A stretch of 64,000 nucleotides of DNA from NCBI GenBank assembly GCA_964649985.1, contig CAZYQX010000014.1, positions 6,124 through 70,123 on the forward strand, written 5' to 3'. The DNA comes from an uncultured Pseudomonadales bacterium. Lineage in GTDB: Bacteria; Pseudomonadota; Gammaproteobacteria; Pseudomonadales; CAZYQX01. The notes below the pieces were generated by a model that saw nothing but the letters and a program-made list of their open reading frames with translations, was not told where the DNA came from and did not search any database. Below, one piece after another: positions 12,824-62,693 of this stretch. A program made the translations under genes and the position numbers. How positions within the stretch are numbered: position 1 is the stretch's first letter; every line of letters starts with the position of its first letter.

Positions 12824-12826
12824 TCG

Positions 12827-12870
12827 AACACCACCCCCTCCCCAGCCCTCCCCCTGAAGGGGAGGGGGTG
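12827..12870 (+). repeat. REP-like hairpin element (PEGEG family), forward copy
   Basis: aacaccaccccctccccagCCCTCCCCCTGAAGGGGAGGGGGtgaat. It forms an inverted doublet with the copy at 12938-12974. Confidence 0.8.
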
Positions 12871-12937
12871 AATCGCTGCATACCGCGAGGTGCTGCGTTT
12901 GTGACCTGAGGGTCTCAAACAGGGCACTGATCTGCAG

Positions 12938-12974
12938 CCCACCCCTCAGGGGGCGGGCAGGGTGGGGGTGGTTT
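12938..12974 (-). repeat. REP-like hairpin element (PEGEG family), reverse copy
   Basis: cccacccctcagggggcgggcagggtgggggtggttt, which is the reverse complement of AAACCACCCCCACCCTGCCCGCCCCCTGAGGGGTGGG. Confidence 0.8.
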
Positions 12975-13016
12975 AACTTGCCAGGCACCGAGTGTCGGCT
13001 CCAGAGGATTGAGAAC

Positions 13017-13769: not shown

Positions 13770-13853
13770 TTGGGCATTGACTAGTTGATTGTGCCCCCGC
13801 GCGGCGGGGGCGGTTCCGCCGGGGCCACCGGCGTACGAGCAAGGGTTTGAACG

Positions 13854-15017
13854 ATGGATCTCGCATTTACCGACAAGCAGAAGGCCTTCCGCGCCGAAAT
13901 CCGCGAGTGGCTGGCCAACAACGTGCCCGCCGAGCCGCTGAAGACCTTCGACACCGCCGAGGGCTTCCAGCAGCACCGCGAGTGGGAAGCCAAGCTGAAC
14001 CAGGGCCGCTGGGGCATGGTGACCTGGCCGAGCGAGCTGGGCGGCCGCGACGCCGACCTGATCGAATGGCTGATCTTCGAGGAAGAGTACTACCGCGCCG
14101 GTGCCCCGCTGCGGGTGAACCAGAACGGCATCTTCCTGCTCGGCCCCACCCTGATGGAGTACGGCACCGAAGAGCAGAAGGCGCGCATTCTGCCCAAGAT
14201 GGCCTCCTGTGAAGACGCCTGGGCCCAGGGCTGGTCCGAGCCGGGTGCCGGTTCCGACATGGCGGCGATCCGCTCCAAGGCCGAGCTGGACGGCGAGTAC
14301 TACGTGATCAACGGCCAGAAGACCTGGTCCACCCGCGCGGTGTTCGCGGACTGGTGCTTCGGCATGTTCCGCACCGATCCCGAGTCCAAGCGCCACCACG
14401 GCCTGACGTTCATCCTGGTGCCGCTGAACACCCCCGGCATCACCGTGCGTCCGATCCCCCAGCTGGACGGCCTGCCCGGCTTCGCCGAGATCTTCTTCGA
14501 CAACGTGCGCGTGCACGTGTCCAACCGTCTGGGCGGTGAGGGCGAGGGCTGGAAAGTGGCCATGGCCACCGCTGGCTTCGAGCGCGGCCTGATGCTGCGC
14601 TCGCCTGCGCGCTTCCAGGAAACCGCCCGCCGCCTGGTCAACCTGTACAAGGAAAACCAGGCCTCCGCCGATCGCGACCCCTCCGTGCGCGACGCGGTGC
14701 TGAAGGCGTGGATGGACGCCGAGGCCTACTGCCTGACCACCTATCAGACCGCCTGCCGCCTGATCAACGGTGGCCACATCGGCGCCGAGGCCTCCACCAA
14801 CAAGATCTTCTGGTCCGAGCTGGATCAGCGCATGCACGAGACTGCCATGAGCATTCTCGGCGCCCGCGCCGAGCTGCTGCCCCACGCGCCAGACGCCCAG
14901 GGCGTCGGCACCTGGCTGGACGGCTTCCTGTTCGCCCAGTCCGGCCCCATCTACGCCGGTACCAACGAAATTCAGCGCAACATCATCGCCGAGCGCATGC
15001 TCGGTATGCCGCGCTAA
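13854..15017 (+). CDS. Acyl-CoA dehydrogenase (class with ..IYAGTNEIQRNIIAE C-terminus)
   Basis: 387 aa. ACAD N-terminal, middle and C-terminal domains (WAQGWSEPGAGSD, INGQKTWST, IYAGTNEIQRNIIAERMLG). Confidence 0.85.
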   Translation: MDLAFTDKQKAFRAEIREWLANNVPAEPLKTFDTAEGFQQHREWEAKLNQGRWGMVTWPSELGGRDADLIEWLIFEEEYYRAGAPLRVNQNGIFLLGPTLMEYGTEEQKARILPKMASCEDAWAQGWSEPGAGSDMAAIRSKAELDGEYYVINGQKTWSTRAVFADWCFGMFRTDPESKRHHGLTFILVPLNTPGITVRPIPQLDGLPGFAEIFFDNVRVHVSNRLGGEGEGWKVAMATAGFERGLMLRSPARFQETARRLVNLYKENQASADRDPSVRDAVLKAWMDAEAYCLTTYQTACRLINGGHIGAEASTNKIFWSELDQRMHETAMSILGARAELLPHAPDAQGVGTWLDGFLFAQSGPIYAGTNEIQRNIIAERMLGMPR

Positions 15018-15038
15018 CCGTACGCCTGGGAGACGATC

Positions 15039-16079
15039 ATGGATTTCACCTTTACCGAAGACCAGGAACTGTTCCGCGATAGCGCCCGCGAGTTTCTGGT
15101 GAACGAAGTCACCGCCGAGAAGACCCGCGAGCTGTGGGAGACCGAGACCGGCCGCAGCCCCGAGCTGTGGGGCCAACTGGCCGAGCTGGGCCTGACCGCC
15201 ATCACCGTGCCTGAAGAGCACGGCGGTCTTGGCATGAACGAGCTGGACATGGTGCTGATCGCCATGGAGTGCGGCTATGTGGCCCTGCCCGAGCCGCTGC
15301 TGGACACCGTACTGGTGGCCGCGCCCATGCTGGCGCAACTGCCGATCGGCGCCGAGTGGCTGCCGAAGATCGCCAGTGGCGAAGCCAAGGTGGCCGTGGG
15401 CCACGGCATCAACCCCTTCGTGGCCGATGCCCACGTGGCCGACCTCCTGCTGATGCAGTACGGCGACGAAGTGCACGCCCTGACCCAGGATCAGGTCAAG
15501 CTGACCCGCAATGAGTCGGTGGACCCCTCGCGCCGCATCTTCCGCGTGGAGTGGACCCCGTCCAACGCCACCCGCGTCGCCAGTGACGCTCAGGCCCTGT
15601 GGAACCAGGCGCTGAACCGCGCCGCCCTGGCCTGTGCCGCGCAGAGCCTGGGTGCCGCCCAGCGCATGATCGACATCTCCGTGCAGTACACCAGCGAGCG
15701 CCACCAGTTTGGCAAGCCGATTGGCTCCTTCCAGGCGGTGAAGCACCACATGGCGAACATCGCCTACAAACTGGAGTACGCCAAGGCCCCGCTGTACCGC
15801 GCCGCCTATGCCCTGGCCCACGGCCAGGCCATCGCCGACGTAGCAGTGAGCCACGCCAAGATCGCCGCCTCCGAAGTGGGCCAGATCGCCGCCAAGAACG
15901 GCATTCAGGTGCACGGCGCGATGGGCTACACCTGGGAAGTGGACCTGCACATCTTCATGAAGCGCGCCTGGACCCTGGACAGCACCTGGGGCGACCGCGC
16001 CTTCCATAAGCAGCGCGTGGCCGAATTTGTACTGGCCGACAACGCGCCAATTGGTGCAGGCTTTACCTTCGCGGCTTGA
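15039..16079 (+). CDS. Acyl-CoA dehydrogenase-family partner subunit (shorter; GYTWEVDLH class)
   Basis: 346 aa, 21 nt downstream of the previous ACAD. C-terminus VHGAMGYTWEVDLHIFMKRAW. Confidence 0.8.
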   Translation: MDFTFTEDQELFRDSAREFLVNEVTAEKTRELWETETGRSPELWGQLAELGLTAITVPEEHGGLGMNELDMVLIAMECGYVALPEPLLDTVLVAAPMLAQLPIGAEWLPKIASGEAKVAVGHGINPFVADAHVADLLLMQYGDEVHALTQDQVKLTRNESVDPSRRIFRVEWTPSNATRVASDAQALWNQALNRAALACAAQSLGAAQRMIDISVQYTSERHQFGKPIGSFQAVKHHMANIAYKLEYAKAPLYRAAYALAHGQAIADVAVSHAKIAASEVGQIAAKNGIQVHGAMGYTWEVDLHIFMKRAWTLDSTWGDRAFHKQRVAEFVLADNAPIGAGFTFAA

Positions 16080-16103
16080 TCCCCGGTGCGGATATCCCCG
16101 CCG

Positions 16104-16140
16104 CCGCCCCCTCGGGGGTGGGCCAGAGCGGGGCTGGTTT
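16104..16140 (-). repeat. REP-like hairpin element (PEGEG family), diverged reverse copy
   Basis: ccgccccctcgggggtgggccagagcggggctggttt, which is the reverse complement of AAACCAGCCCCGCTCTGGCCCACCCCCGAGGGGGCGG. Confidence 0.55.
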
Positions 16141-16187
16141 TTCCCGGGGCGGAATGAGGTTCCGCTCCACTTTGAGAGGCTTGAATC

Positions 16188-17336
16188 ATGGCTGAAGCTT
16201 ATATCGTCGACGCGCTGCGTTCGCCCACCGGTCGCCGCAAGGGTGGCCTGGCCCATGTGCACGGTGCCGACCTCGGCGCCCACGTGCTGAAGGCGCTGGT
16301 GGAGCGCAACGGCATTCCCGACAACGAATACGACGATGTGATCTTCGGCTGCGTGGACACCATCGGGCCGTTGGCCGGTGACATCGCGCGCACCTGCTGG
16401 CTGGCCGCTGGCCTGTCCCAGGAAGTGCCGGGCACCACCATCGATCGCCAGTGTGGTTCCTCCCAGCAGGCGGTGCACTTTGCCGCCCAGGCCATCATGT
16501 CCGGCACCATGGACGTGGTGGTGGCCGGTGGCGTGCAGACCATGACCCAGATTCCCATCTCCTCGGCCATGACCGCCGCCGAGCCGCTGGGCTTCAAAGA
16601 CCCCTTCTCCGGCTCCAAAGGCTGGGTGGCCCGCTACGGCGCGACCCCACCGACCCAGTTCAACTCCGCCCAGATGATCGCCGACAAGTGGGGCCTGAGC
16701 CGCCAGGATCTGGAGATCTTCTCGCTGGAGTCGCACAACCGCGCCCTGCGCGCCATCGCCGAAGGCCGCTTCAAGCGTGAGATCGTGCCGCTGGAAGGCG
16801 TGGAGCACGACGAAACCCCGCGCCAGAGCTCGCTGGAGAAAATGGCCCAGCTGGAAGGTATCTTCGGTTGCGACAAAGTCACTGCCGGTGTCGCTAGCCA
16901 GACCTGCGACGCCTCCAGCGCCATGCTGATCGTGTCCGAGGCCGCCCTGAAGCGCTACAACCTGACCCCGCGCGCCCGCATCCACCACATGAGCGTGCGC
17001 GCCGAAGACCCGATCTGGATGCTCACCGCGCCGATCCCGGCGACGCGTTACGCCCTGAAAAAAGCCGGCATGAGCATGCAGGACATCGACTTGGTCGAAA
17101 TCAACGAAGCCTTCGCTTCCGTGGCCATGGCCTGGTTGAAGGAAATGGACTACCCGCACGAGAAGACCAACGTCAACGGCGGCGCCATCGCCCTGGGCCA
17201 CCCACTGGGTGCCACCGGCACCAAGCTGATGACCACCCTGTTGCACGAACTGGAGCGCACCGGTGGTCGCTACGGCCTGCAGACCATGTGTGAAGGTGGT
17301 GGGCAGGCGAATGTGACCATTATCGAGCGCTTGTAA
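16188..17336 (+). CDS. Acetyl-CoA C-acyltransferase (thiolase, FadA6-like)
   Basis: 382 aa. Nucleophile region [27 protein letters not shown], and C-terminal CEGGGQA. Confidence 0.9.
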
Positions 17337-17432
17337 GCCTCGGGACGATCTCGGTGAGCAGCCAAGTGCCGGCATGCCTCCCATGAGGGAGTCATGCCCA
17401 AACGAATTCAACGCATTTTGAGGAGAGCAACA

Positions 17433-18320
17433 ATGGCAGGTATCTGTGACGGTCGCGTAGTCATCATCACCGGCGCCGGTGGCGGTCTGGGCGCTGCCCA
17501 CGCGCGCACCTTCGCCGCCGAAGGCGCGTCCGTGGTGGTCAACGACATCAACCTGGCCGCCGCCCAGAAAGTGGTGGACGAGATCGTCGCGGCCGGTGGC
17601 AAGGCCGTGGCCAACAGCTCCGACATCACCAACTACGCCGACAGCGAAAACGCCGTCAAGCAGGCCATCGAAACCTTCGGCGACTTGCACGTGGTAGTGA
17701 ACAACGCCGGCATCAACCGCGACCGCATGTTCGCCTCCATGACCGAGGCCGAGTGGGATGCCATCATGGCGGTGCACCTGAAGGGCCACTTCTGCATCTC
17801 TTCCCACGCCGTGCACTACTGGCGCGACCAGGCCAAGGCTGGCAAGCAGGTGGATGCACGCATCATCAACACCACCTCCGGCGCGGGCCTGCAGGGCTCC
17901 ATTGGCCAGTCCAACTACGCCGCCGCCAAGGCCGGCATCGCCGCGCTGACCCTGAACCAGGCCGCCGAGCTGGGCCGCTACGGCATCACCGCCAATGCCA
18001 TCGCCCCGGCCGCCCGCACCGGCATGACCACCGCGGTTGAGTCCATGGCCACCCGCATGGCCGCGCCCACCGACGGCAGCTTCGACTACTGGGCGCCGGA
18101 GAACGTCTCCTCCCTGCTGGTATGGCTGGGCTCCGCCCAGGCCGCTCACGTCACCGGTCGCGTTTTCGAGTCAGAAGGTGGCAAAATCTCCATCGCCGAT
18201 GGCTGGCGCAGCACCGAGGGCGTGGACAAAGGCGCCCGCTGGGAGCCGGCCGAAGTGGGCGAGGCGGTCAAGCAACTGCTGGCCAAGGAAGTACCAGCGC
18301 AGAAGGTGTACGGCACCTGA
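17433..18320 (+). CDS. Short-chain dehydrogenase/reductase (SDR)
   Basis: ITGAGGGLGAAHA (TGxxxGxG), NNAG, and catalytic YAAAKAG (YxxxK). ATG at 17433 after a gaggag RBS. Confidence 0.85.
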   Translation: MAGICDGRVVIITGAGGGLGAAHARTFAAEGASVVVNDINLAAAQKVVDEIVAAGGKAVANSSDITNYADSENAVKQAIETFGDLHVVVNNAGINRDRMFASMTEAEWDAIMAVHLKGHFCISSHAVHYWRDQAKAGKQVDARIINTTSGAGLQGSIGQSNYAAAKAGIAALTLNQAAELGRYGITANAIAPAARTGMTTAVESMATRMAAPTDGSFDYWAPENVSSLLVWLGSAQAAHVTGRVFESEGGKISIADGWRSTEGVDKGARWEPAEVGEAVKQLLAKEVPAQKVYGT

Positions 18321-27067: not shown

Positions 27068-27784
27068 ATGAGTCGCACAAAATGGATTGCAGGTGTTGGC
27101 CTGGCGCTGGTCATGGCCGGCGGTGGCTTGGTCTACAACACCTTTTTCACCGCCCCCGCATCGCAAGCACTGCCGTTGCCGCAGGCTCTGGTATCCCTCG
27201 ATAGCCCGGCCGGGCAGGCGCTGCTGGCCATGAGTGAGTCAAAGCAGGATTTCGAACAGTTACAGGCCGTGTTGCCCGCGCAGTCGCGCATGGCGTTTTG
27301 TGGCGTGGCAACGCTGCTGGGGGTACAGAACGCCGCCCTCAAGCCCCAGGGCGAAAGCTACGACCAGCAGACACTGTTTGCCTCCCCGGCGGGGCAGGTT
27401 AAATCGTCGCTTGCCGTGAGTTTTCAGGGCATTAATCTGAATGAATTGGCGCAGATGTTCAGCGCACTCGGCTACCAGGTGCAGCGCACGCCGGTGAACG
27501 CCGAGACCTCGCTGGCGCGCTTCAGAGCGGAGCTAAAAGCGAGCCTCGCCGATGGCACATCGTTTGTCGTGGTGAACTATGCGCGCGGGGTGTTGGGCCA
27601 GGCGGGCATGGGCCACATCTCACCGATTGGCGCCTACAACGCGGTGGAAGACAAGGTACTGGTCATGGATGTGGCCAAACACAAATACCCCTACACGTGG
27701 GTGCCGCTGAACAGCCTGTGGCAGGCGATGAACACCCAGGGCGACGACGGTGTGGCACGCGGCTACATCATCGCGACGCGCTAG
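27068..27784 (+). CDS. Phytochelatin-synthase-like (papain-fold C83) protein with N-terminal signal/anchor
   Basis: 238 aa. N-terminal hydrophobic segment WIAGVGLALVMAGGGLV. Candidate catalytic triad contexts MAFCGVATL (Cys), GHISPIGAYN (His), LVMDVA (Asp). Confidence 0.7.
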   Translation: MSRTKWIAGVGLALVMAGGGLVYNTFFTAPASQALPLPQALVSLDSPAGQALLAMSESKQDFEQLQAVLPAQSRMAFCGVATLLGVQNAALKPQGESYDQQTLFASPAGQVKSSLAVSFQGINLNELAQMFSALGYQVQRTPVNAETSLARFRAELKASLADGTSFVVVNYARGVLGQAGMGHISPIGAYNAVEDKVLVMDVAKHKYPYTWVPLNSLWQAMNTQGDDGVARGYIIATR

Positions 27785-33718: not shown

Positions 33719-36403
33719 TCAGTTCTGTGCGCTTAACAATGCCCGCCCCAGCTCGCGCGCCAGCGCTACGCTGCTGACGGGTTTGCTGAGTACAGCCATG
33801 GCCCCGGCCGCTTGTAGCGCGCTGATGGTGTCGCTATCTTGCTGGCTTGTCATGGACAGCAGCGGCAGGGGCGCATCGGCGCGGCGTGCGGCCATCAGGC
33901 GCAGTGCGCGTGGCATTTCGGTGCCGCCCAGGCGGGGTAGCTCGCTGTCTATGATCAGCGCTGCAATCGACTGCCAGTGCTGTTCGGCATAATCGAGCGC
34001 CTCTTGGGCATCAACACAGAAGTGCGGCCTGAAGCCGAGGCGTTCCAGCTGTTGTTTTAGCAATCGAGCGTTTACGGGATTGTCGTCCACCACTACCGTC
34101 AGTGGGCGGTGACGCACGATGTTTTCCCGTTCCGTGTTGAGGGCAATAAGCTCACTGATCAGCTGCCCGAAAACCATGCTGCGCACGGGTTTGGCAAAAT
34201 ACAGGGCACCCGCCAGCTCTTCGCCCGCGCGCAGGGCTGAGAGATCCTTAGCGGATAGAACGAGCAGGCCCTCTTTGGGCAGGGAGTCAAGTTCTGCCAG
34301 CAAGGTAGAAGAAAGCCATTGGGAGGCTTCTGGCAGGCGAGGGTTGAACGCGATTACGTCCGGGGCGGTCCGTCCATCCAGCAACTCTATGCCTTGGCTC
34401 ATGTCTGCTGCATACAGAACGTCCATGCCCCAGTCGCGCGCTTCATCCGTGAGCGCAATGCGGTCAGCACTATCGGTATCCACCAATAGCAGGGTTTGCT
34501 GACGGACAGCGGGCAGCGCAACCTGCAGGGTCTGCTGGCAGAATTCGAAGGCCAATGTCAGGCTGTAGCTGCGCCCGCTTCCCTTGTGCGTGGAGATCTG
34601 CAGATCACCGCCCAGGTGTCTCGCCAGTGCGCGGCAGCCTTCCAGATTGATGTCTGAGAAGATGGGCTGAGATCCCTCTGCAGGGGAGAGCTCCTGCGCC
34701 GTTTCTGGGGCAAGCGTGTGAATGCTGCTGTCGTCCAGAGTGAAGCATAGGCGCAGCGGCCCTGCTTCAGTGGCTGGGACGCGCTCTACGCGTAGCAGCA
34801 AGTGGCCACGGTAGGCGCGGTGCATGGCATGGTCCAACAGGCCGATCAGCATGCGCCGCAGGCGCGGCTCATCTCCGCTGAGAAGCATGGGGATTTCGGG
34901 CGCAATATCCACGCCAATGGTCAGCCCTGTGGCACGCGCGCGCGATAGCAGGGTCTGCAGAACATCGCTCAACACGATGTCCAGACAGAAATCGAGACGG
35001 TTCGTGTGCAGGAGGTCGCGTCGCATGCGGGCCATGTCTTCCAGATTTTCCAGCGTCACCTGCAAGCGGGCGGCACTGCGTTCAATGTGCAGCGCTGTGC
35101 GTGCCTGTTCCACGGGGATGCGTGCCTTGGCCAGCCGGCTTATCAACGAGAAGAAACCTTCCAGCGCGGGGTGCAAGTTGAGTGAGATGCGTGCCAGAAG
35201 CTGCTGCTGTGTGCTGGCGAGCGCCTCTTGTCTTGCTTGCTGTAGGCTTACCGGGTTGTTCGTGGGGCTCAGGTTGGTCGATTGCGTGTCGAGCCCCTTG
35301 AGCATGATGGCCCCACTGAGCAATGCCGTAAGAAGTAACAGCAAGTCGCGTTGCTCGGCGGCCCAGAGCCAGTGGTAGCTGACAAATTGTAAGGCCGTCG
35401 GGATGGTCGCCGCCATGAGAATGCTGATGGCAAAGGCCGTGGCGCCCGGGAAGTCGCGCTCGCGGTTGACACTTGCTGTCACAAGGGCCACGGCGATGAG
35501 GAAGCCGAAGCACGCGAGATAGAGAAATTTGAACAATGGAATGTTGCCTGCTGCGGCGAGGGGCAGAAGCACCACGGCGGTACTTAGCAGATACAGGTTG
35601 AAACCAAGATGAAGCCGCGGATGGCGGTTTTTACTCTGATAGACCTCGCGCAGTAGCGCGGCAGCGATGAGCAATGTTGCACTTTGGGCAAGCAATGTGA
35701 ATGAGGTGTTGAGCAGGCCGGCACCCAGCAGCTGGTGCTTGCCGCTGTATGCCAGCACGTTGGCCAATAGCCAGCCCGCCAGCCAGGCAAAGGCCGCTGT
35801 CTTTGCCCGCCACTGGCTGCTGGCGCTCAGCAGGGTCACGCCGAGTGCCGCACCGACCACGAGCCATTCGAGGAGTTTGTTTTGGGCATTTGTTTCCAAC
35901 AGTGAGTTACTGCTGTGAACACGCAGAGAGAGGGAAAGCTGGTCGCGGCTTTGCAGGCAGAGCAACACGGTTTGGGGCGTATTGTTGAGTATGCGGATGG
36001 GCAGTGAGGGAAAACCTTGGGCACTCAATATCGGCCTGACATCCAGAGGCGTGACCAGACTGTTGCTGGCACTGAACGCGCTAAAGTGCTCCAGTGAAGC
36101 ATTGGCCACGCTGATCCAGAGTGTGTCGTTTTCGGTGCGTGGCAACTGCAGTTTGATCCACACGTTTGCCGCTCGCATGCCGAGCTGCGCTGGGGTTTTG
36201 CCGTCGCTGAGCTTGCGCCAATGGCTCTGCGGGAGCGCAGCAATCTGCTGGGCATCCTGCGGGCCGAGTGGGGAGAGCAGATAAACCGCGTCAGCAACGC
36301 TGTCCGTGTCGGAGCGCGTGGATTCCTGCGCCATGCTGTTAGCGGTACTCGTCATCAGCCAGGCGGTTAAAGCAGTCAATAGCAGGGCGCGTAGCGTAAT
36401 CAT
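33719..36403 (-). CDS. 7TMR-DISM hybrid sensor kinase-like protein with degenerate ATP-binding motifs, plus C-terminal receiver
   Basis: 894 aa. Signal peptide, periplasmic domain, about 7 TM helices, H-box-like ISLNLHPALEG. The N-box reads LLDHAM (Asn to Asp) and G1 reads TLDDSS (no DxGxG). The terminal REC has ALIIDSELPRLGG. Confidence 0.7.
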   Translation of the reverse strand: MITLRALLLTALTAWLMTSTANSMAQESTRSDTDSVADAVYLLSPLGPQDAQQIAALPQSHWRKLSDGKTPAQLGMRAANVWIKLQLPRTENDTLWISVANASLEHFSAFSASNSLVTPLDVRPILSAQGFPSLPIRILNNTPQTVLLCLQSRDQLSLSLRVHSSNSLLETNAQNKLLEWLVVGAALGVTLLSASSQWRAKTAAFAWLAGWLLANVLAYSGKHQLLGAGLLNTSFTLLAQSATLLIAAALLREVYQSKNRHPRLHLGFNLYLLSTAVVLLPLAAAGNIPLFKFLYLACFGFLIAVALVTASVNRERDFPGATAFAISILMAATIPTALQFVSYHWLWAAEQRDLLLLLTALLSGAIMLKGLDTQSTNLSPTNNPVSLQQARQEALASTQQQLLARISLNLHPALEGFFSLISRLAKARIPVEQARTALHIERSAARLQVTLENLEDMARMRRDLLHTNRLDFCLDIVLSDVLQTLLSRARATGLTIGVDIAPEIPMLLSGDEPRLRRMLIGLLDHAMHRAYRGHLLLRVERVPATEAGPLRLCFTLDDSSIHTLAPETAQELSPAEGSQPIFSDINLEGCRALARHLGGDLQISTHKGSGRSYSLTLAFEFCQQTLQVALPAVRQQTLLLVDTDSADRIALTDEARDWGMDVLYAADMSQGIELLDGRTAPDVIAFNPRLPEASQWLSSTLLAELDSLPKEGLLVLSAKDLSALRAGEELAGALYFAKPVRSMVFGQLISELIALNTERENIVRHRPLTVVVDDNPVNARLLKQQLERLGFRPHFCVDAQEALDYAEQHWQSIAALIIDSELPRLGGTEMPRALRLMAARRADAPLPLLSMTSQQDSDTISALQAAGAMAVLSKPVSSVALARELGRALLSAQN

Positions 36404-36411
36404 GTACTGGC

Positions 36412-39081
36412 TCAGATGGCGTTTGCGTTGGGAAGGCAGATTTTTTGCAGCTGGCGTCCAAGTTCTGCTGACAGGACGGGTTTTTCCAGCACGGCATCTA
36501 TACCGGCCGCCCGGGCGCGGCTGTGTTCGATACTGCCGGCACTCAACAGCAGCAGTGGCAGTCGTGGGCTACCTTGGCTGGCCTCCCGGGCACGGATTTC
36601 CCGGGCGCAACGCAGCCCATCCATGATCGGCATGTTGGCACTCAGCAGGGCGCAATCGTAATCCTGCGTATGCGCCACCAGTTCTTCCAAGGCGCTGACG
36701 CCGTCTGGGCAGGTCTTGACACTCGCACCCAGCTGGCGGAGCAGCCCTTGGGTGACGATCTGCGCTGTAGGGTCATCTTCAGCCAACAGCACCCTCAAGT
36801 TGAGTGTCGACTCGGGAGCGGCTGAGTTGGACACGGTTTCTGTGACGACTTCAATGCGCTGTGCTGCCCGAATGCTGCTTTGCAAGCTGCTGAGATCGAT
36901 CGGTTTGGGTGTGAGCCTGAACCCTGGTGCCTGGTGCGCACTGAACTTGATGTCAGAGCACATCAAAATGATGTTTCTTGGGGCGAGGGGGGCAGCGCGG
37001 TAATGTTCTATGAGGCGGCTGAGCGACTCTTCATCGAGAGGCGGTGCGACAATGAACAGCATATGAGCGCGTTCACCTCGGCGCAGCGCATCTTCACTGA
37101 CGGTGTTCACGCCCCATAGGGCTAGCTGTTCTGCAATGGCATGGCGGATGAAATGGGAACCTCCAGCCAGGCCCACGCGGGTTCCTTGCAGTGCCATGGC
37201 ATCACCGGACGATGGGGGGAAACCCACCGGGCAGGGGAGCGTGAAGCCGTATTGCGTGGGCGTCTTGTTTCGGTCGCGCCAAACCCCACCCATTTCGTCG
37301 AGCAGGCGCGCACAGCGGTCACTTGGCTGCGCCATGCTGGATGCATCATTGGCTCCGAACAGTTCCACTTGGAATTGCAAGAGCACGCTGCCGGCGCGGA
37401 TTTCTTCCACTTGGCAACGCAAGGTTATCCCCGGCACACCCTGGCTCAGTGCGTGGTTGAGTAGCTCCAGCAGCACTTCCTGCAAGCGTTGTCGATCGAG
37501 TTTGCATTGAGGTGGCACGTCGGGTGACAGCAGCAGTGCCAGCTCTTGATTATTGAGGCTGGCGCCTGAGGCAAGGCTGTTAAGCAGTGCGGTGAGGAAC
37601 ACTGGCAATTCGGTGTCCTCGCGTTCCAATTGGCTGCTGCCTTCGCGTTGACGGCGGGTGTCAATCACATCATCAAGTAATGTCAGCAGGCCAGTGCCAG
37701 TTTGTTCTATCTGAACCAAGGCGGCGTTAAGGCCAGCAGGGATCGGTTGTGAGCGCATCATTTGCGCTAGCCCGAGGCAGTCTGACATGGGGGCTCTTAC
37801 GGCGTGCCCCAAGGTAGTACTCATCATGGCCTTTATACTGCCTACCGCTTTCTCGTGGGCGTTGTTTTGCGTTTCTGCCCGAGCTTGCGACCTGAGGTAT
37901 TGCTCTCGGTGAGAGATGGCCATGGTGAGGGCCAAGATGGCGAAGCCGATGAGCACTGAACCAATGGGTTGTAGCAGGTCAACACGCTGACTGAGGCCTG
38001 TGCTCAGTACGATCAGGAGGCTGCCCACCACGGTTAACAGCAGGGTTCCCACCAGGTAGGGAATGGCGGGTGTATAGCCCTGGTGCATCCTGTTCCATGC
38101 CAGGCGAATGAAGATCAGCGATGCAATGAAAATGATGGGTGTCATCAGTGTCAGCATCAGGGCTTCCGGAATGCCTGCCGTCACGCCCACCGCCCAGGCG
38201 GCACTGTATGCGGCGTAAAAGCCAAGCAGTCGATGTGTGTTCTGATGCCTTCTTGCGGTATCGAAAATCTGTTGGCTGACCAGCGCATGAAACGTTATCG
38301 CCAGCAGTGGGGCGCCCACTCTGAACAGCGTGGCGAGGAGCGAATTTTCTGCGGTCAGCAGGTGGAAATCATTGTTGCGGGCACCCGTTGCTGCCACCGT
38401 TGCCAGGCAGAGCCCGGCCATGAGCCAGTTGCTGAATCCGCCTTGGCGCATGCCATTAAGCAGGTGAAAGATGCACAGGCCCGCCAGCAGGCCCATACCC
38501 AAGCCGCTTGCCAGCTTTAGCCAGTGTTGGTACTGAAGATAGCCGGCCTCACTTCTTAGTTGAACGGGAAAGGTGTCGATGCGCAGGTCATATGCACGCA
38601 GATAGTAAATTTGCGAGCTGTTGGCCGGCAGATGTAGCCGAGCCACGGGGAGCGCATTGCCAAATGAAAGTGCCTGCGTGCTGTGCGTGCCAAGTTGCTG
38701 GCTAACCCAGCCTTGTTGGGACGCCTGGTAGATATCAACCCGTTCAATGTCTGGATTCGGGATCTCCAGAATCAGGTTGATATCTTCTGCGGTGGGATTG
38801 CTCAACAAGAAGCGGAACCAGAATACCCGTTGACGTGTGCTCGTCCCGCCACCGGCCTTGCCGTTAAACGCCTGGAAGGCCGGCGCCTGGCGGTCGGCTT
38901 CCTCTACGCTCCACTTCCCGGCGCCATCCTCCACAAAGCGCAGTTGCCTGCTGATGTCGAAGCCTGTCGCCAGTTTGTCAGGCTGCACGATGGTTGGGCT
39001 GTCGTCGGCTGCGTGGCTGCCCATCGCAAGGAGCAGTAGCAGAAGGCTGGTAGTGAGGTGTTGTATGAGCCTGCTGATCAT
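36412..39081 (-). CDS. 7TMR-DISM hybrid sensor kinase-like protein with degenerate G-boxes and an Asp-less C-terminal receiver
   Basis: Signal peptide MISRLIQHLTTSLLLLLLAMGSHA (an alternative GTG start lies at 39117). Periplasmic domain, about 7 TM helices, H-box TLGHAVRAPMS, N-box LLNHAL, no DxGxG or GxGLG. The receiver reads CALLSANMPIMDG where the phospho-acceptor Asp is expected. Confidence 0.7.
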   Translation of the reverse strand: MISRLIQHLTTSLLLLLLAMGSHAADDSPTIVQPDKLATGFDISRQLRFVEDGAGKWSVEEADRQAPAFQAFNGKAGGGTSTRQRVFWFRFLLSNPTAEDINLILEIPNPDIERVDIYQASQQGWVSQQLGTHSTQALSFGNALPVARLHLPANSSQIYYLRAYDLRIDTFPVQLRSEAGYLQYQHWLKLASGLGMGLLAGLCIFHLLNGMRQGGFSNWLMAGLCLATVAATGARNNDFHLLTAENSLLATLFRVGAPLLAITFHALVSQQIFDTARRHQNTHRLLGFYAAYSAAWAVGVTAGIPEALMLTLMTPIIFIASLIFIRLAWNRMHQGYTPAIPYLVGTLLLTVVGSLLIVLSTGLSQRVDLLQPIGSVLIGFAILALTMAISHREQYLRSQARAETQNNAHEKAVGSIKAMMSTTLGHAVRAPMSDCLGLAQMMRSQPIPAGLNAALVQIEQTGTGLLTLLDDVIDTRRQREGSSQLEREDTELPVFLTALLNSLASGASLNNQELALLLSPDVPPQCKLDRQRLQEVLLELLNHALSQGVPGITLRCQVEEIRAGSVLLQFQVELFGANDASSMAQPSDRCARLLDEMGGVWRDRNKTPTQYGFTLPCPVGFPPSSGDAMALQGTRVGLAGGSHFIRHAIAEQLALWGVNTVSEDALRRGERAHMLFIVAPPLDEESLSRLIEHYRAAPLAPRNIILMCSDIKFSAHQAPGFRLTPKPIDLSSLQSSIRAAQRIEVVTETVSNSAAPESTLNLRVLLAEDDPTAQIVTQGLLRQLGASVKTCPDGVSALEELVAHTQDYDCALLSANMPIMDGLRCAREIRAREASQGSPRLPLLLLSAGSIEHSRARAAGIDAVLEKPVLSAELGRQLQKICLPNANAI

Positions 39082-39278
39082 GGAGCTGTCTGGAATCTCA
39101 ACTATGGTTATGCGCACTGTCGGATGAAGAACGCCAAGGATTTAGGACGGTACGCCGCTTCGAGTAGGTTTCAGATGAACATAGTGTAGCAGTCGTCAGC
39201 AGCGGGGCTGCTTGTACTTGGTGGCCGGTGGGGAATCCCTTAAGATAGCGGCCTCCTATTATTGTGGTGGAACAGAAC

Positions 39279-48800: not shown

Positions 48801-49127
48801 ATGAAACAACGCACACGGAAATCTGCCGTCGTGTCACTCACGCTTATTGGCAGTGCACTCTCCGGCTGTTCTGATAATGCGGATCTCATCCGCGACGTCT
48901 ACAACGATTACGCCGACTGCATGGCGGAGTGGGGTGATAGCTCACTCTGCGAAGAGCAGCAGAGCGATATCGGCGGTGATGCGCGCACGGTCTTTTATGG
49001 CCCCCCTTACAAGCCGGGGCATCGCCCCGACTATGTACTGGGCTTTGGCAAGAGCATCGCCACTGAATCGGTGGAAAAGGCCGGCTTTGGCCAGACGGCC
49101 GAAACGCTGGATGTCGCGGGCGGCTGA
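48801..49127 (+). CDS. DUF1190-family lipoprotein (YgiB/YjfM-like)
   Basis: MKQRTRKSAVVSLTLIGSALSGC lipobox. Its position directly upstream of, and overlapping, a GSP-synthetase-like gene matches E. coli ygiBC. Confidence 0.65.
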   Translation: MKQRTRKSAVVSLTLIGSALSGCSDNADLIRDVYNDYADCMAEWGDSSLCEEQQSDIGGDARTVFYGPPYKPGHRPDYVLGFGKSIATESVEKAGFGQTAETLDVAGG

Positions 49128-50259
49128 GGTGATTCGCGAGCGCTTGATACCGCGCCAGGACTGGCAGCAACGCTGCGAGTCCCAGGGCTTCATGTTTCAC
49201 TCGGTGGGCGGCGTCTACTGGGATGAATCAGCCTGTTACCGCTTCGACAGCGCGCAGGTGGATCAACTCGAAGCAGCGGCCAACGATCTGCACCACTGCT
49301 GCCTGGAACTGGTCGAGCGGGTGGTGGCGGGTGGCCACTACGAGCGCTTTGCCATTCCCGAGTCGGCCATCGGGCTGATCGAAGCCTCCTGGCGCGCGGG
49401 TGAAGCGGCGCTCTACGGCCGCTTCGACTTCAGCTGGAATGGCCGCGGTGAGCCCAAATTGCTGGAGTACAACGCCGATACGCCGACTTCGCTGTTGGAA
49501 GCCAGCGTGGTGCAGTGGTTCTGGCTGCAAGACGTACAACCCGATGCCGATCAGTTCAACGGCATTCACGAACACTTGCTGGCGCGCTGGCAGGCCCTGG
49601 CCGCCGAGCGGGGGGCTGGGCCGGTCTATTTCACCAGTGTGCCCACCAGTGCCGAGGATTTCGGCAACATTGAATACATGCGCGACGTGGCGCTGCAGGC
49701 CGGCGTCGACGCGCGACACATTTTTGTGGATGATATCGGCTGGGATCGCCGGCAGCGCTGTTTTGTCGATGCAGAGGGCCAGCGCCTCGACTGGTTGGTG
49801 AAGCTCTACCCGTGGGAGTGGTTGATGCAGGAGCGCTTTGGCGAGCACTTGGCGCCTGCCAGGCCGCGCATTATCGAGCCCGCCTGGAAGATGCTGCTCT
49901 CCAACAAGGCGCTGCTGCCATTGCTGTGGCAGATGTTCCCGGGCCATCCCAATCTGTTGCCGGCGTCGTTTCGTGCCGAAGACATCCGCGGGGATTTTGT
50001 GCGCAAGCCGATCCTGTCGCGGGAAGGGGCCAATGTCACCGCGTTGTTTCAGGGCCATTGCTGGCAGACCAGCGGTGCCTATGGCGCCGAGGGCTTTGTT
50101 TACCAGGCGGCGGCACCGCTGCCCTGCCACGATGGCAATTACCCTGTGCTCGGGGTCTGGATGGTGGGTGATGCCGCCGCCGGCATGGGCATTCGGGAAG
50201 ATGACACACCCATAACGCGCAATACCAGCCGTTTTGTACCGCACTACTTTGTTCACTGA
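49111..50259 (+). CDS. Glutathionylspermidine synthase-like ATP-grasp protein (YgiC/YjfC family)
   Basis: RFDF..NG.PKLLEYNADTPTSLLEASVVQW.., KPILSREGANV, and the GxWMVGD pattern of the GSP-synth preATP-grasp family. Confidence 0.8.
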   Translation: MSRAAEVIRERLIPRQDWQQRCESQGFMFHSVGGVYWDESACYRFDSAQVDQLEAAANDLHHCCLELVERVVAGGHYERFAIPESAIGLIEASWRAGEAALYGRFDFSWNGRGEPKLLEYNADTPTSLLEASVVQWFWLQDVQPDADQFNGIHEHLLARWQALAAERGAGPVYFTSVPTSAEDFGNIEYMRDVALQAGVDARHIFVDDIGWDRRQRCFVDAEGQRLDWLVKLYPWEWLMQERFGEHLAPARPRIIEPAWKMLLSNKALLPLLWQMFPGHPNLLPASFRAEDIRGDFVRKPILSREGANVTALFQGHCWQTSGAYGAEGFVYQAAAPLPCHDGNYPVLGVWMVGDAAAGMGIREDDTPITRNTSRFVPHYFVH

Positions 50260-54277: not shown

Positions 54278-55282
54278 ATGCCAATAGCCCGCGCTTTGAG
54301 TTTCGCCAGTGTGCGAACATGCCGCACCGCTTGGGGTGTGCTCGTCTGCACGCTGTTCATTCTGGCGGGGTGCGAGGGGCCCAAGCACGATCTGCGCATT
54401 GCGACCAATCTTTGGGTGGGTTACCAGCCGCTTTTCTTGGCGCGTGAGCGCGGTTTTATTGATGCCCAACAGTTCCGGCTGGTGGAGTTTGGCACCAGCA
54501 GAGAGTCGTTGCGCGCGTTTCGAAATGGCGAGGTTGAGCTGGCTGCGCTGACCCTGGACGAAGTGCTCCGCTTGCGTGCTGAGTCGCATGACGTGCGCGT
54601 TCTCCTGGTGATGGATTACTCCGAAGGCGCCGATGCCTTGCTTGTGCCTGGTCTACTGCAGAGCGTGGCAGAGATCAAGGGGCGGCGTGTTGGTGTCGAA
54701 CCGGGGGCGGTGGGCAGCTATCTATTGCGCAGAGCACTGCACAAAGCAGGCCTGAAACCAGCGGATATACAGGTCGTGCCGGTGGAGGCACCAGATCACC
54801 CTTCAGCTTTCTCGAACAACAAGGTGGATGCCTTGGTGACTTACGAGCCTATGAAGTCACAACTTTTGGGGCAGGGGGCTCGGCAGTTATTTAGCAGTGA
54901 GGACATCCCCGGCGAAATTGTGGATGTTCTGGCAGTGCGCGGCTCTGTGGCAGATAGCCGCGCCCGAGATTTGCAACTTTTGATCAACGGCTGGTTCATG
55001 GCTCTGCAAGACCAACGCAAACAACCTCTTGAGGCTGCTCGCCTGATGGCACCTCGCATAGGCATGACCGACGAACAGTGGGTGGCGGCCTCCGCAGAGC
55101 TGCATTTTCCGGATCAGCCTGAAAACTGCAAGCACATACGTGGTGGTGATCATTCCGCGCTGAACGGCGTGGCCATGCGCATGGCCGCCGTCATGCTTGA
55201 AGACAAGCTCATCAATCAATCACCCTCACTCAATGGTTTGATTGTTGCTGATGCCGAAAAGCTGTTGGGGTGCATCAAATGA
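54278..55282 (+). CDS. NMT1/TauA/SsuA-like periplasmic substrate-binding lipoprotein
   Basis: Lipobox FILAGC. Type-2 SBP pattern (LRIATNLWVGYQPLFLARERG..., GRRVGVEPGAVGSYLL). An alternative ATG lies at 54260. Confidence 0.65.
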   Translation: MPIARALSFASVRTCRTAWGVLVCTLFILAGCEGPKHDLRIATNLWVGYQPLFLARERGFIDAQQFRLVEFGTSRESLRAFRNGEVELAALTLDEVLRLRAESHDVRVLLVMDYSEGADALLVPGLLQSVAEIKGRRVGVEPGAVGSYLLRRALHKAGLKPADIQVVPVEAPDHPSAFSNNKVDALVTYEPMKSQLLGQGARQLFSSEDIPGEIVDVLAVRGSVADSRARDLQLLINGWFMALQDQRKQPLEAARLMAPRIGMTDEQWVAASAELHFPDQPENCKHIRGGDHSALNGVAMRMAAVMLEDKLINQSPSLNGLIVADAEKLLGCIK

Positions 55283-58197
55283 GCGTATCTGGGGCGACGT
55301 GGCTCTATCGCTATCCACTGAAATTCAGCTTACCGGTTGGCTTGGCCTTGGTAGCGCTGGTTTTTTTCTTCGTGTATGTCTTCAACCTGTGGCAAGCCCA
55401 CCGTGATGCCCTGATCTTTGATGCACGAGAAGCCATTACATCCGATGTAACGCGTTTGCAGCGACAATTCCAGTATCTGGTGGATCATGGCGACAACGCC
55501 CAGCTGCAGGAAGAAATGGCCTATATGGGGGCTGATTTACGCGTGCGTATTGCGGCTGTCCTGGATGAGCGCCAGCACGTGATTGCCTCTACCAGCCGCA
55601 CCGATTTGGTTGGTAGCAATAATGGCGATGCCCTGGCAAGGGCCGGGCTAGAGAGTGTATCGAACAAGCTGTGGCCATTGTTGGATGAATTGCGCCGGGA
55701 GCAGGCGGTAGATAGCTGGCTGTTTACCGAGCAGGGTGTGCTGCTCGCTGCGGCTCCTCTTACCATGGGCAGAACGCCTGAGAGCCTGAGTGGCCAGCAG
55801 GAGGCCATGATTGTATTGGGGTGGGATCTGGAGGCGCTGTACTGGACGGCCCTGGAGAAAACCCTCATCACAACGGCAAAATTTGCTCCAGTGGCCATCA
55901 TAGGCATCGTGGTGATTGGTTTCATCCTACATGTGATGCTGGCTCGTCGTCTTGATTTATTGGCGCATACCGCCGAGCAGTTGGCCGCCGGTGACTTGGG
56001 CGTGCGCAGCGCGCTGTTTGGCTCGGATGAAGTTGGGCGCTTGGCCCGTGCTTTTAACGAGATGAGCGATACGCTGGGCTTGCAGTGGGGTCGGTTACAG
56101 GAGAGCGAGCGACGCCTCTCCCTCAGCCAGACCTTTTCCGGCATTGGCACCTGGGAGTGGGATATCGGCAGCGGCGTTTTGGTGCTGACGGCCACCACCT
56201 ATCGCTTGTTGGGTTTGCCGCCCAATAGCCAGGTCAGTTTCGGGCAGTTCCTTGAGCTTCTCGATCCGGTGGATGCCCAGCGTCTGAGACAGGCCATGGA
56301 CGCGACTCTCAGCCAAGGCAAACCCCTCTCGGCGGTATATGGGCTTGAGCTTGCCACTGGTGAACAGCGCTGGCTGATGCAGCGCGGTGACGTACTGCGT
56401 GATGAGCACGGTGCGCCGCAGCGCATGTACGGTGTATTGCAGGATATTACCCCGCAAAAACAGGCCGAGTTTGCGCTATATCGCGAAAAAGAAAAGGCTC
56501 AAGTGACCCTGGCGTCCATTGTGGATGGTGTGGTCACCACCGATACGGAAGGCCGCATCAGCTACATGAACCCGGTGGCCGAGCAATTGACCGGCTGGGA
56601 GGCTATGGAAGCCCAGGGGCGGCCTGTAGGTGAAGTGGTGTGTCTGTTGGACGACATGACTCACGAACCTCTGGACAACCCGCTGCACCGAGTCTTGCAT
56701 GATGGCCGATCCGTGGGCTTGCCAGGCCAGGCACTGCTGCGTTCGCTGCGGGGGGGCGAGTCGGTGGTAGAGGAGTCCATGGCGCCGCTGCGGGATCGCG
56801 ACGGCACCATACTGGGGGCGGTGCTGGTGCTGCACGACGTGACTGAGGCGCGGGAGATGGCCTTGCGCATCACCTGGCAAGCGACCCATGACAGCCTCAC
56901 CGGGCTAGTCAATCGCGCCGCCTTTGAAGATCAGCTGAGAACCCTGTTGCGAGGGGCGGATAATCGCGAGCACAACAAGATCCACACCTTGCTCTACATA
57001 GACTTGGATCAGTTCAAAGTCGTCAACGATATCGCTGGCCACGTGGCGGGTGATGAATTGCTGAAGCAAGTGTGTGGCCTAATGCAACAGCACGTTGGCG
57101 AGCGGGATGTGCTGGCCCGCTTGGGCGGCGACGAGTTTGGCCTGATTCTCGATGATTGCCGCATTGCCAAGGCCAGGCTGGTGGCAGAGCGTTTACACCA
57201 GTCGGTGGATTCTTTCCGCTTCGCCTGGAATGATCGCGTCTTTCGCATCGGGCTGAGCATCGGTGCGCTGGAGTTTCAGGCCGGGGAGGGCAATCTTTCT
57301 GATCTCATGAGCGCGGCTGATCTGGCCTGTTATGCGGCCAAGAATTCGGGCCGCGGGCGCACGCACATTTACGCCACTGAAGACGCCTACCTACAGCAGC
57401 ACCGCAGTGAGATGGACTGGGCGGCCCGGGTCAATGAGGCGGTGGAGGATGACCGGCTTGAGCTGTGGGGCCAGCGCCTGATGTGTATCAACCCCATCTG
57501 CGCCGAGCCCGGCTTGCACTTCGAAGTGTTGGTGCGGTTGCGGGACGAAAACGGCAACCTGGTGGCCCCAGGGGTGTTTCTGCCTGCGGCCGAGCGCTAT
57601 GACCTGATGGCCATTGTCGACCGCTGGATCATCAACAAATCCTTCGCCATGGTCGCGGAACACCTGCGCCGGCGCGGTGGCAAGGGCATCGCCCAATGTG
57701 CGATCAACTTGTCCGGCATCTCTCTGGGCAGTGAACAACTGTTGCCCTATGTGCGCAGCAAGCTGGAAGAATACGCGCTGCCGCCCGAAGTGTTCTGTTT
57801 TGAAATCACGGAAACCGCGGCCATTTCCAACTATCAGACTGCGCTGCGCTTTATTCGTGAAATCAAGGGGTTGGGTTGCCGTTTCGCGTTGGATGATTTT
57901 GGCAGTGGCCTGTCGTCGTTCTCTTATCTACGCAACTTGCCGGTGGACTATCTGAAGATCGATGGTTCATTTGTGCGCGGCATTTGCTCCGATCCGGTCA
58001 ATCGGGCGCTGGTGGGCAACATCAACAGCATTGGCCACCTGTTGGGCAAGCGCACCATTGCCGAGTATGCCGAAGACGAATCCACCATCGCCTTGCTGCG
58101 TGAGCTGGCGGTGGATTATGCCCAGGGCTATGGCGTGAGCCGACCTGAGCCATTGGCTGACATGTTGCGTGCGGCGGAGGGGGGGCTGCGCGTCTGA
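55279..58197 (+). CDS. Membrane sensor HAMP-PAS-PAS-GGDEF-EAL protein (c-di-GMP turnover)
   Basis: Two TM helices flank a ~190-aa periplasmic region. HAMP (GRLARAFNEM), two PAS, RLGGDEFGLIL (GGDEF), EAL-domain motifs FEVLVRL, FEITE, DDFGSG. The ATG at 55279 overlaps the SBP stop (ATGA). Confidence 0.9.
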   Translation: MSVSGATWLYRYPLKFSLPVGLALVALVFFFVYVFNLWQAHRDALIFDAREAITSDVTRLQRQFQYLVDHGDNAQLQEEMAYMGADLRVRIAAVLDERQHVIASTSRTDLVGSNNGDALARAGLESVSNKLWPLLDELRREQAVDSWLFTEQGVLLAAAPLTMGRTPESLSGQQEAMIVLGWDLEALYWTALEKTLITTAKFAPVAIIGIVVIGFILHVMLARRLDLLAHTAEQLAAGDLGVRSALFGSDEVGRLARAFNEMSDTLGLQWGRLQESERRLSLSQTFSGIGTWEWDIGSGVLVLTATTYRLLGLPPNSQVSFGQFLELLDPVDAQRLRQAMDATLSQGKPLSAVYGLELATGEQRWLMQRGDVLRDEHGAPQRMYGVLQDITPQKQAEFALYREKEKAQVTLASIVDGVVTTDTEGRISYMNPVAEQLTGWEAMEAQGRPVGEVVCLLDDMTHEPLDNPLHRVLHDGRSVGLPGQALLRSLRGGESVVEESMAPLRDRDGTILGAVLVLHDVTEAREMALRITWQATHDSLTGLVNRAAFEDQLRTLLRGADNREHNKIHTLLYIDLDQFKVVNDIAGHVAGDELLKQVCGLMQQHVGERDVLARLGGDEFGLILDDCRIAKARLVAERLHQSVDSFRFAWNDRVFRIGLSIGALEFQAGEGNLSDLMSAADLACYAAKNSGRGRTHIYATEDAYLQQHRSEMDWAARVNEAVEDDRLELWGQRLMCINPICAEPGLHFEVLVRLRDENGNLVAPGVFLPAAERYDLMAIVDRWIINKSFAMVAEHLRRRGGKGIAQCAINLSGISLGSEQLLPYVRSKLEEYALPPEVFCFEITETAAISNYQTALRFIREIKGLGCRFALDDFGSGLSSFSYLRNLPVDYLKIDGSFVRGICSDPVNRALVGNINSIGHLLGKRTIAEYAEDESTIALLRELAVDYAQGYGVSRPEPLADMLRAAEGGLRV

Positions 58198-58216: not shown

Positions 58217-58267
58217 AAAAAAATGCGCCGCTAGCACGGCAGGCACATCTGCCGGCTAGTCTGGCGC
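58217..58267 (-). terminator. Strong Rho-independent terminator (minus-strand orientation)
   Basis: On the minus strand: gcgcc-aga-ctagc-cggcag-atgtgc-ctgccg-t-gctag-c-ggcgc (16 bp in total), then a + ttttttt. Confidence 0.75.
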
Positions 58268-58327
58268 TGAAGGGTCGTTAGCCGAGAACATCGAGCATTC
58301 CCACCCTGAGGCCGTTAACTCAGGATG
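58217..58327 (-). ncRNA. Candidate Fur-repressed small RNA (~110 nt, promoter to terminator, no ORF)
   Basis: Bounded by the predicted sigma70 promoter/Fur box (58330-58362) and the terminator. It has a 5' hairpin cctgag-ttaacggc-ctcagg and a central unpaired stretch. I recognise no family. Confidence 0.4.
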
Positions 58328-58329
58328 TT

Positions 58330-58362
58330 GTTAATGATAATTGTTATCATGTGTGGCGGCAA
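58330..58362 (-). promoter_or_regulatory. Fur box overlapping a sigma70 promoter
   Basis: GTTAATGATAATTGTTATC (58330-58348) matches GATAATGATAATCATTATC at 16/19 positions. On the minus strand: TTGCCG (58357-58362), a 17-nt spacer, then TATCAT (58334-58339). Confidence 0.6.
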
Positions 58363-58377
58363 GCGCTTTTTTGAACA

Positions 58378-61897: not shown

Positions 61898-62479
61898 TTA
61901 CTTGGCGAACTGCTCGGCCACGAACTTCCAGTTCACCAGGTTCCAGAACGCTTCAACGTACTTGGGACGCAGGTTGCGGTAGTCGATGTAGTAGGCGTGC
62001 TCCCACACATCGCAGGTCAGCAGGGCGGTCTTGCCTTCGGTCAGCGGGCAGCCGGCTGCGCCCATGTTGACGATTTCAACGGAGCCGTCGGCATTCTTCA
62101 CCAGCCAGGTCCAGGCGGAGCCGAAGTTGCCTACCGCAGAGGCGCTGAACTTGGCTTTGAAATCGGCAAAGGAGCCAAACGCCTTGTTGATGGCGTCGGC
62201 CAGGGCGCCGGTAGGCTCACCGCCAGCGTTGGGGGCCAGGCAGTTCCAGTAGAAGGTGTGGTTCCAGATCTGGGCAGCGTTGTTGTAAATGCCGCCAGAG
62301 GAGGTCTTGATGATCTCTTCCAGGCTCTTGCCTTCAAACTCGGTACCGGGTACCAGGTTGTTCAGGTTCACCACGTAGGCGTTGTGGTGCTTGCCGTGGT
62401 GAAACTCGAGGGTTTCAGCGGAGATGTGCGGCTCCAGCGCGTTTTTCTCGTAGGGCAGAGCGGGAAGTTCAAATGCCAT
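61898..62479 (-). CDS. sodB: Iron superoxide dismutase
   Basis: MAFELPALPYEKNALEPHISAETLEFHHGKHH, AAQIWNHTFYW, DVWEHAYYIDYRN, with Fe-type residues (AAQ..NHTFYW). Confidence 0.92.
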   Translation of the reverse strand: MAFELPALPYEKNALEPHISAETLEFHHGKHHNAYVVNLNNLVPGTEFEGKSLEEIIKTSSGGIYNNAAQIWNHTFYWNCLAPNAGGEPTGALADAINKAFGSFADFKAKFSASAVGNFGSAWTWLVKNADGSVEIVNMGAAGCPLTEGKTALLTCDVWEHAYYIDYRNLRPKYVEAFWNLVNWKFVAEQFAK

Positions 62480-62693
62480 GATATCCACCTCGAAATGGAG
62501 TTGTTGTCAGCTTAACGACCGGCGTGGACTCTAGCAGATTCGGAAGAATCTCGCCAAGTAAAAGACCAATCAAAATGCTAGGAAAAGCCGTATTTGCTGG
62601 CTTTGCGGCATTTGCACCGCTCCCTGGCCGCCCAGCGGGCAGCGCAGCAGGTATAATGGGCCTTCATTTTGATGTTCCCTCAGGATTGCCAGT

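Follow-up and report, generated by a model that had tools for sequence, protein, structure and literature searches.

A predicted Fur-repressed small RNA gene, shared by two lineages, in the gap between convergent genes of an uncultured gammaproteobacterium

A 180-nt gap between two convergent genes in the 64-kb stretch of DNA analysed here (hereafter the window) probably holds an independently transcribed, Fur-repressed gene for a noncoding RNA of ~110 nt. The product would most likely belong to the RyhB/PrrF functional class of iron-starvation sRNAs and be the founding example of a sequence family previously undescribed. A more limited proposition, that the gap contains a structured, ORF-less RNA unit which has been under selection, we hold with high confidence. 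Transcription, start site, Fur binding, iron response, Hfq dependence, and every target discussed below are features that we infer from the sequence and its comparison with a second lineage. The case suggests that an sRNA of the Fur class can be recognised in the raw sequence of an uncultured gammaproteobacterium and corroborated by covariation in a single relative.

The gap lies between the end of the GGDEF-EAL ORF at 58197 and the GDPD stop codon at 58380-58378, in agreement with the spacing between the two 3′ ends given in a preliminary description of this DNA, and every element that the description had assigned to the minus strand of the gap was found in its place. Read along that strand, the elements are AAAAGCGC; the −35 hexamer TTGCCG, which begins 16 nt past the GDPD stop codon; a 17-nt spacer; TATCAT; ~6 nt; a 9-bp hairpin; a stretch with little pairing that includes GAAUGCUC and GCUAACGACCCU; a GC-rich hairpin of 17 pairs; and U7 (Table 1). 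From the GDPD stop codon to U7 no other terminator is predicted, either in the window or in the second lineage introduced below, and the U7 terminator probably also ends the transcript of the upstream GDPD gene. When the terminator hairpin (58224-58270) is read on the plus strand, A7 precedes it and no T run follows; the GGDEF-EAL gene is thus left without an obvious intrinsic terminator, and its transcription may continue into the sRNA gene in antisense.

Table 1. Positions of the predicted sRNA gene, its parts, its neighbours, and the candidate target in the window
Feature	Position	Strand	Remarks
PAS-GGDEF-EAL gene	55270-58197	+	Convergent with GDPD
Predicted sRNA, ~110 nt	58217-58328	−	Start placed at ~58326-58329 from the position of the −10 hexamer
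Intrinsic terminator, GCGCC...GGCGC	58217-58267	−	17 pairs, two bulges; U7 at 58223-58217
Single-stranded linker GCUAACGACCCU	58271-58282	−	Includes putative seed copy 2, UAACGACC, at 58273-58280
Possible weak middle hairpin, GGGAAUG...UGUUCUC	58283-58301	−	From the consensus fold; includes conserved GAAUGCUC
5′ hairpin	58302-58327	−	9-bp stem; 8-nt loop UUAACGGC (58311-58318), putative seed copy 1
Fur box (predicted)	58330-58349		19-mer at 58330-58348; 7-1-7 core at 58335-58349
−10 hexamer TATCAT	58334-58339	−	Promoter scan; identical in L029
−35 hexamer TTGCCG	58357-58362	−	Promoter scan; conserved AAAGYGC upstream at 58363-58369
GDPD (glycerophosphodiester phosphodiesterase) gene	58378 to ~59088	−	Other flank of the gap
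sodB gene	61898-62479	−	Candidate target in the window
Candidate target site GGUCGUUAaGCUGA	62507-62520	−	−41 to −28 of the sodB leader

The promoter scan identifies a sigma-70-like arrangement, TTGCCG, 17 nt, and TATCAT, at 58362-58334 on the minus strand with 9 of 12 matches, one of two sites this good in the 3-kb region where 0.7 would be expected; the −35 hexamer is weak, matching at 4 of 6 positions in the window and at 3 of 6 in L029 of the second lineage, whose promoter the scan does not call. Within the same segment, GTTAATGATAATTGTTATC at 58330-58348 matches the Fur 19-mer consensus (which may not be the host's own) at 16 of 19 positions and is the only site in the entire 64-kb window with three or fewer mismatches (0.01 expected), and the 7-1-7 Fur core TGATAATnATTATCA at 58335-58349 matches at 13 of 14 positions, with a single mismatch. 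The Fur box covers both the −10 hexamer and the spacer, which is where a repressor would be expected to sit, and the consensus and promoter scans together uphold the earlier reading of a 16/19 box laid over a minus-strand promoter. The window offers no other Fur-regulated gene for comparison, and no fur or hfq gene was found in it.

Folding of the 112-nt RNA (58328 to 58217) gives −47.6 kcal/mol, with z = −3.46 against dinucleotide shuffles, and the homologous RNA of L029 gives a fold z of −4.79. The 5′ hairpin, unpaired centre, and terminator with U7 that had been proposed for the RNA all appear in the predicted fold, and the loop UUAACGGC and linker GCUAACGACCCU are unpaired in the minimum-energy folds of both lineages. 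The octamer UAACGRCC is common to loop and linker, two segments that are both exposed and invariant, and we take it to be the seed.

Comparison with relatives provides the strongest argument that the unit is real. A search with the GDPD protein of a collection of 5.8 billion proteins returned only three close lineages, with GDPD identities of 100%, 83%, and 71%, and the RNA is present in just the first two: the 100% match (L028) is the window sequence itself, and the 83% lineage (L029, L030, and L031) carries a clearly homologous unit. Specifically, i) the L029 Fur box occupies the same promoter position as in the window, so that a box lies over the sRNA core promoter in both lineages, with 16/19 and 13/14 matches each; ii) TATCAT is identical, the −35 hexamer retains its TTGC, the spacing is unchanged at 17 nt, and AAAG(C/T)GC upstream of the −35 hexamer is likewise kept; iii) the loop is identical at 8 of 8 positions and the linker at 12 of 12; and iv) among 30 consensus pairs, substitutions affect both partners in 8 and one partner in 2, and all scored positions remain paired. 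The changes are spread over two of the helices, since 4 of the 8 pairs scored in the 5′ hairpin differ on both sides and 1 on one side with pairing kept throughout, and 4 of the 14 consensus pairs of the terminator differ on both sides, again with pairing kept; the middle hairpin is neither backed nor opposed by covariation because 7 of its 8 pairs do not vary. When the 3′ partners were slid by 1 to 3 columns as a control, pairing fell to 40-48% and no double changes were seen. The covariation as a whole is one pairwise comparison, between the two lineages that carry the unit.

The pattern of conservation also marks out the limits of the unit. The RNA block is 69% identical between the two lineages and the promoter block 28/40, compared with neutral proxies of 48.5% at GDPD third codon positions and 39% downstream of the U tract, the latter no better than an arbitrary alignment. 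The conserved block spans ~−45 (relative to the inferred start) to the U tract, and outside it the window and L029 do not align. Between the GDPD stop codon and the unit, L029 has an unrelated insert of ~105 nt (L029:2056-2160) without counterpart in the window, and this indel stops exactly where the conserved promoter block begins. The convergent neighbour in L029 is a thiolase gene with its own terminator, as opposed to GGDEF-EAL in the window. Conservation and covariation of the spacer in related genomes had been suggested as a check on the preliminary description, and the box, the −10 hexamer, the spacing, and the helices are all kept in the L029 lineage. With promoter, operator, helices, and two single-stranded segments all apparently under selection, the unit has the look of a self-contained gene for a noncoding RNA.

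We found no unit in the 212 nt available downstream of GDPD in the 71% lineage (L032, L033, and L034). A 46-nt tandem repeat of 2.2 copies with 87% matches stands at the position of the sRNA there (L032:2035-2135, also in L033 and L034), and the contig ends before any further feature appears.

We were unable to trace the RNA further. R1, a covariance model derived from both lineages, gives them scores of 129-133 bits, recognises a single copy in the 64-kb window, and has no match in 46 loci from elsewhere. Contigs of a genome collection scanned with the GDPD protein gave a best match of 56% (Thiothrix MAGs), and the RNA was present in 0 of 27 loci; the GDPD relatives at 63-65% (L035, L036, and L051) differ in gene order and lack the RNA; a blastn search of a plasmid collection gave no match; and a search with the EAL domain led to a best orthologue of 66% in a Thiohalobacter sp. 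MAG, on a contig without the RNA. Gammaproteobacterial MAGs make up the nearest named relatives, Thiothrix and Thiolinea for GDPD and Thiohalobacter for the EAL domain; those of SodB are assorted Gammaproteobacteria. Pattern scans yielded a sole metagenome match (L037), which lacks a Fur box, a hairpin, and a terminator and was dismissed as chance, and 10 viral-contig matches, also attributed to chance, all of which the covariance model rejected. L036, one of the distant GDPD relatives, repeats ATTATCATTAACAAC exactly over 15 nt (L036:1693-1707), between glutaredoxin-like and hydrolase genes; the sequence corresponds to the right half of the window Fur box with its flank, and this may be another Fur site.

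Nor does the RNA belong to a known family in Rfam. The whole window has no match to Rfam 15 at gathering thresholds; a search of either lineage against 4227 Rfam families at E ≤ 10 returned only sub-threshold noise of the terminator type; and models for RyhB, PrrF/ArrF, NrrF, HrrF, FsrA, and IsaR1 match neither lineage. The lack of resemblance to RyhB and PrrF noted earlier thus extends to covariance models, and the RNA would stand outside both families even if it works as they do. The seed sequences turned up in the literature only as unrelated primers, in no relevant context.

Because no terminator intervenes between GDPD and the unit, some or all of the RNA could arise by read-through, and a first alternative is that the structured RNA is simply the 3′ UTR and terminator that end the GDPD mRNA, set free by processing if it is released at all; the Fur-like palindrome would then be a roadblock or incidental, and no separate promoter would be under its control. 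We consider this unlikely. It would account for the position of the unit directly downstream of GDPD in both lineages, for the lack of any other predicted terminator up to U7, and for the weak −35 hexamers, and it has a precedent in BrrF, a Fur-class sRNA cut from an upstream mRNA (PMC7377471). It does not readily explain why TATCAT, TTGC, and the exact 17-nt spacing have been kept despite the ~105-nt insert in L029, or why conservation starts at ~−45, away from the GDPD stop codon. We also know of no link between GDPD and iron, which counts against the same explanation. Origins from an own promoter and from GDPD read-through are nevertheless compatible and can coexist. A different proposal accepts an independent sRNA gene and has its operator read by a regulator other than Fur, for example another Fur-family protein, in response to a signal other than iron. 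The Fur consensus used may not be the one the host employs, the AT-rich palindromes of Fur-family regulators look alike, and the window half-site TTGTTATCA is slightly Zur-like; but the Fur-type core TGATAATnATTATCA matches at 13 of 14 positions in both lineages, the classical GATAATGATTATC is found in the L029 copy, which lacks a Zur-like half, and Zur and PerR cores differ from Fur at positions that are kept here, so that we regard a non-Fur regulator as distinctly unlikely.

That the gap is functionless, a bidirectional terminator of convergent genes next to a chance AT-rich, Fur-like sequence, we consider highly improbable. The hairpin does lie between two convergent genes, and the promoter and Fur box are consensus matches only; yet no T run follows the hairpin on the plus strand, the block with box, loop, and linker is ~70% identical where neutral sequence is 39-48% identical, 8 of the changes are compensatory, and the convergent gene in L029 is a different one with a terminator of its own. 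The thought that the RNA encodes a very small protein is barely credible. The preliminary description had seen no plausible ORF and a single ATG, and the former judgement stands while the latter does not: the window copy has three ATGs, which open frames of 6, 11, and 5 codons. None of these has a Shine-Dalgarno sequence at a usable distance, no start codon, stop, or frame is conserved in L029, and an indel shifts the frames; as no ATG frame is kept in the second lineage, we continue to read the RNA as noncoding.

We conclude that the gap probably harbours a Fur-repressed sRNA gene with its own promoter, and the following course of events would be consistent with its layout. When iron is available, Fe-Fur would occupy the 19-bp box over the −10 hexamer and spacer and exclude RNA polymerase; when iron is scarce, Fur would be released, and sigma-70 polymerase would start near 58328 and stop at U7, 58217. 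The resulting RNA would display the loop UUAACGGC, the unpaired linker GCUAACGACCCU, and the terminator hairpin with its U tail. Hfq usually binds such a terminator hairpin and U tail, and would probably do so here. The two copies of UAACGRCC could then serve as seeds that pair with mRNAs containing GGYCGUUA, and synthesis of dispensable iron proteins would be reduced, sodB being the one candidate target visible in the window. Fur repression and pairing with the mRNAs of iron proteins constitute the mechanism summarised for RyhB and PrrF (PMC7377471).

The evidence on sodB points both ways, and we regard it as a doubtful direct target. The sodB leader contains GGUCGUUAAGCUGA at −41 to −28, including the 8-mer GGUCGUUA that the preliminary description had located at −41 to −34 (62520-62513), and two pairings are conceivable for the site, one of 9 bp with the loop and one of 8 + 5 bp, interrupted by a single bulge, with the linker. 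In 128 kb (both strands), GGYCGUUA occurs three times, twice as the sRNA gene in antisense and once in the sodB leader; the invariant unpaired segments have ~6-8 octamer matches in the window, of which only that of sodB lies in a real 5′ leader, and the whole RNA body has 142. The site precedes the ribosome-binding region and probably forms the extreme 5′ end of the transcript. At −19.5 kcal/mol the sodB duplex ranks ~99th in this G+C-rich window, where whole-RNA duplex-energy scans are dominated by long, G+C-rich, imperfect duplexes and do not discriminate; and in a relative with a 93%-identical SodB, which may itself lack the sRNA, the −10 region TGCTAGAGT is kept and the target site is absent from the leader. 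The ranking and the absence of the site bear out the caution, voiced from the outset, that the 8-mer could be a chance match. The sodB promoter GAATCTGCTAGAGTCC(C)ACGCC, with the extended −10 element TGCTAGAGT, is conserved between the window (62521-62545, minus strand) and this relative (L038:2669-2692); past the promoter, the two leaders have fully diverged down to the Shine-Dalgarno sequence.

Elsewhere in the window, genes of lipid- or steroid-type catabolism are densely clustered at 2449-23106 and include those for an acyl-CoA thioesterase, a KshA-like Rieske oxygenase (4756-5739, minus strand), a FadD3-type CoA ligase, a CoA-transferase, at least 4 acyl-CoA dehydrogenases, a thiolase, and short-chain dehydrogenases; the Rieske oxygenase is an iron protein, and its gene has no seed match at its start. 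A seed 8-mer before the minus-strand ORF 9610-10770 was rejected because that ORF is spurious, the real gene being one for a CoA-transferase on the plus strand. The minus-strand frames 9610-10770 and 11321-13261 have no Pfam match, and the plus-strand genes that they overlap, for the CoA-transferase and a nitronate monooxygenase, do. An open frame of 1709 codons at 13020-18149 (minus strand) runs antisense to an acyl-CoA dehydrogenase/thiolase/short-chain dehydrogenase operon (13854-18320, plus strand) and is probably an artefact of high G+C content, since Pfam recognises the plus-strand genes. Genes for LemA and an HtpX-like M48 peptidase lie beside a pair of neighbouring hybrid sensor kinase/response-regulator genes (33719-39117, minus strand), each of ~900 codons. 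Phytochelatin-synthase-like and glutathionylspermidine-synthase genes, at 27068-27784 and 48847-50259 (both plus strand), have thiol- or metal-stress functions and are uncommon together.

A more elaborate version of the proposal would make the RNA the representative of a Fur sRNA family with a duplicated seed, acting at the extreme 5′ end of the sodB mRNA instead of its ribosome-binding site and having a dual origin with the GDPD mRNA. As the GDPD terminator is shared, such an RNA would combine an iron-controlled promoter of its own with the 3′ end of an mRNA for phospholipid turnover, and it would integrate two signals. We think this improbable in its full form. If the simpler proposal is true, the candidate adds one more family to the class, supplies a covariance model for annotating related MAGs, and defines a seed, UAACGRCC, for target prediction. 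It would leave the understanding of the Fur-sRNA class unchanged and is, as a new sequence family within a well-known functional class, useful rather than surprising.

Fur-controlled sRNAs run the iron-sparing response in many bacteria, and each lineage seems to have invented its own, which is why such RNAs cannot be found by homology. The likeness of the candidate to known members is one of architecture: a Fur box over a promoter, an ORF-less unit, and a terminator, on which the preliminary description had based its comparison with RyhB and PrrF, can all be recognised in the sequence. RyhB of Enterobacteria and Vibrio (RF00057) has, like the candidate, a Fur box directly over the promoter and an ORF-less RNA of ~90-110 nt that starts with a hairpin, leaves its seed unpaired, and ends in an intrinsic terminator with U tail, and sodB is its expected target class; but the candidate does not match RF00057 at E ≤ 10, its seed sequence differs, and its sodB site would lie at the 5′ end of the leader (−41 to −28), whereas that of RyhB is at the start codon. 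PrrF1/PrrF2 of Pseudomonas and ArrF of Azotobacter (RF00444) share with it a high-G+C gammaproteobacterial host, a promoter with a Fur box, and a hairpin terminator; the genomic context differs, RF00444 does not match, and the tandem pair of the Pseudomonas aeruginosa type contrasts with a single copy in the 64-kb window.

Similar in genomic setting is BrrF/ncS63 of Burkholderia, an iron-starvation sRNA which also lies immediately downstream of a protein gene, has no similarity to other Fur-class sRNAs, and shows that new families of the class keep appearing (PMC7377471). BrrF itself lacks a Fur box and is excised from the mRNA of hemP, a Fur-regulated gene, whereas the candidate has a box on its own predicted promoter and follows GDPD, which is not iron-related. 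NrrF of Neisseria, HrrF of Haemophilus (PMC4144887), and RusT of Caulobacter (PMC11005374) differ from the candidate in host lineage and are unmatched by it in Rfam searches, but they are, as it would be, lineage-restricted and under Fur or iron control, and they came to light in the same way, through an intergenic Fur box followed by a terminator.
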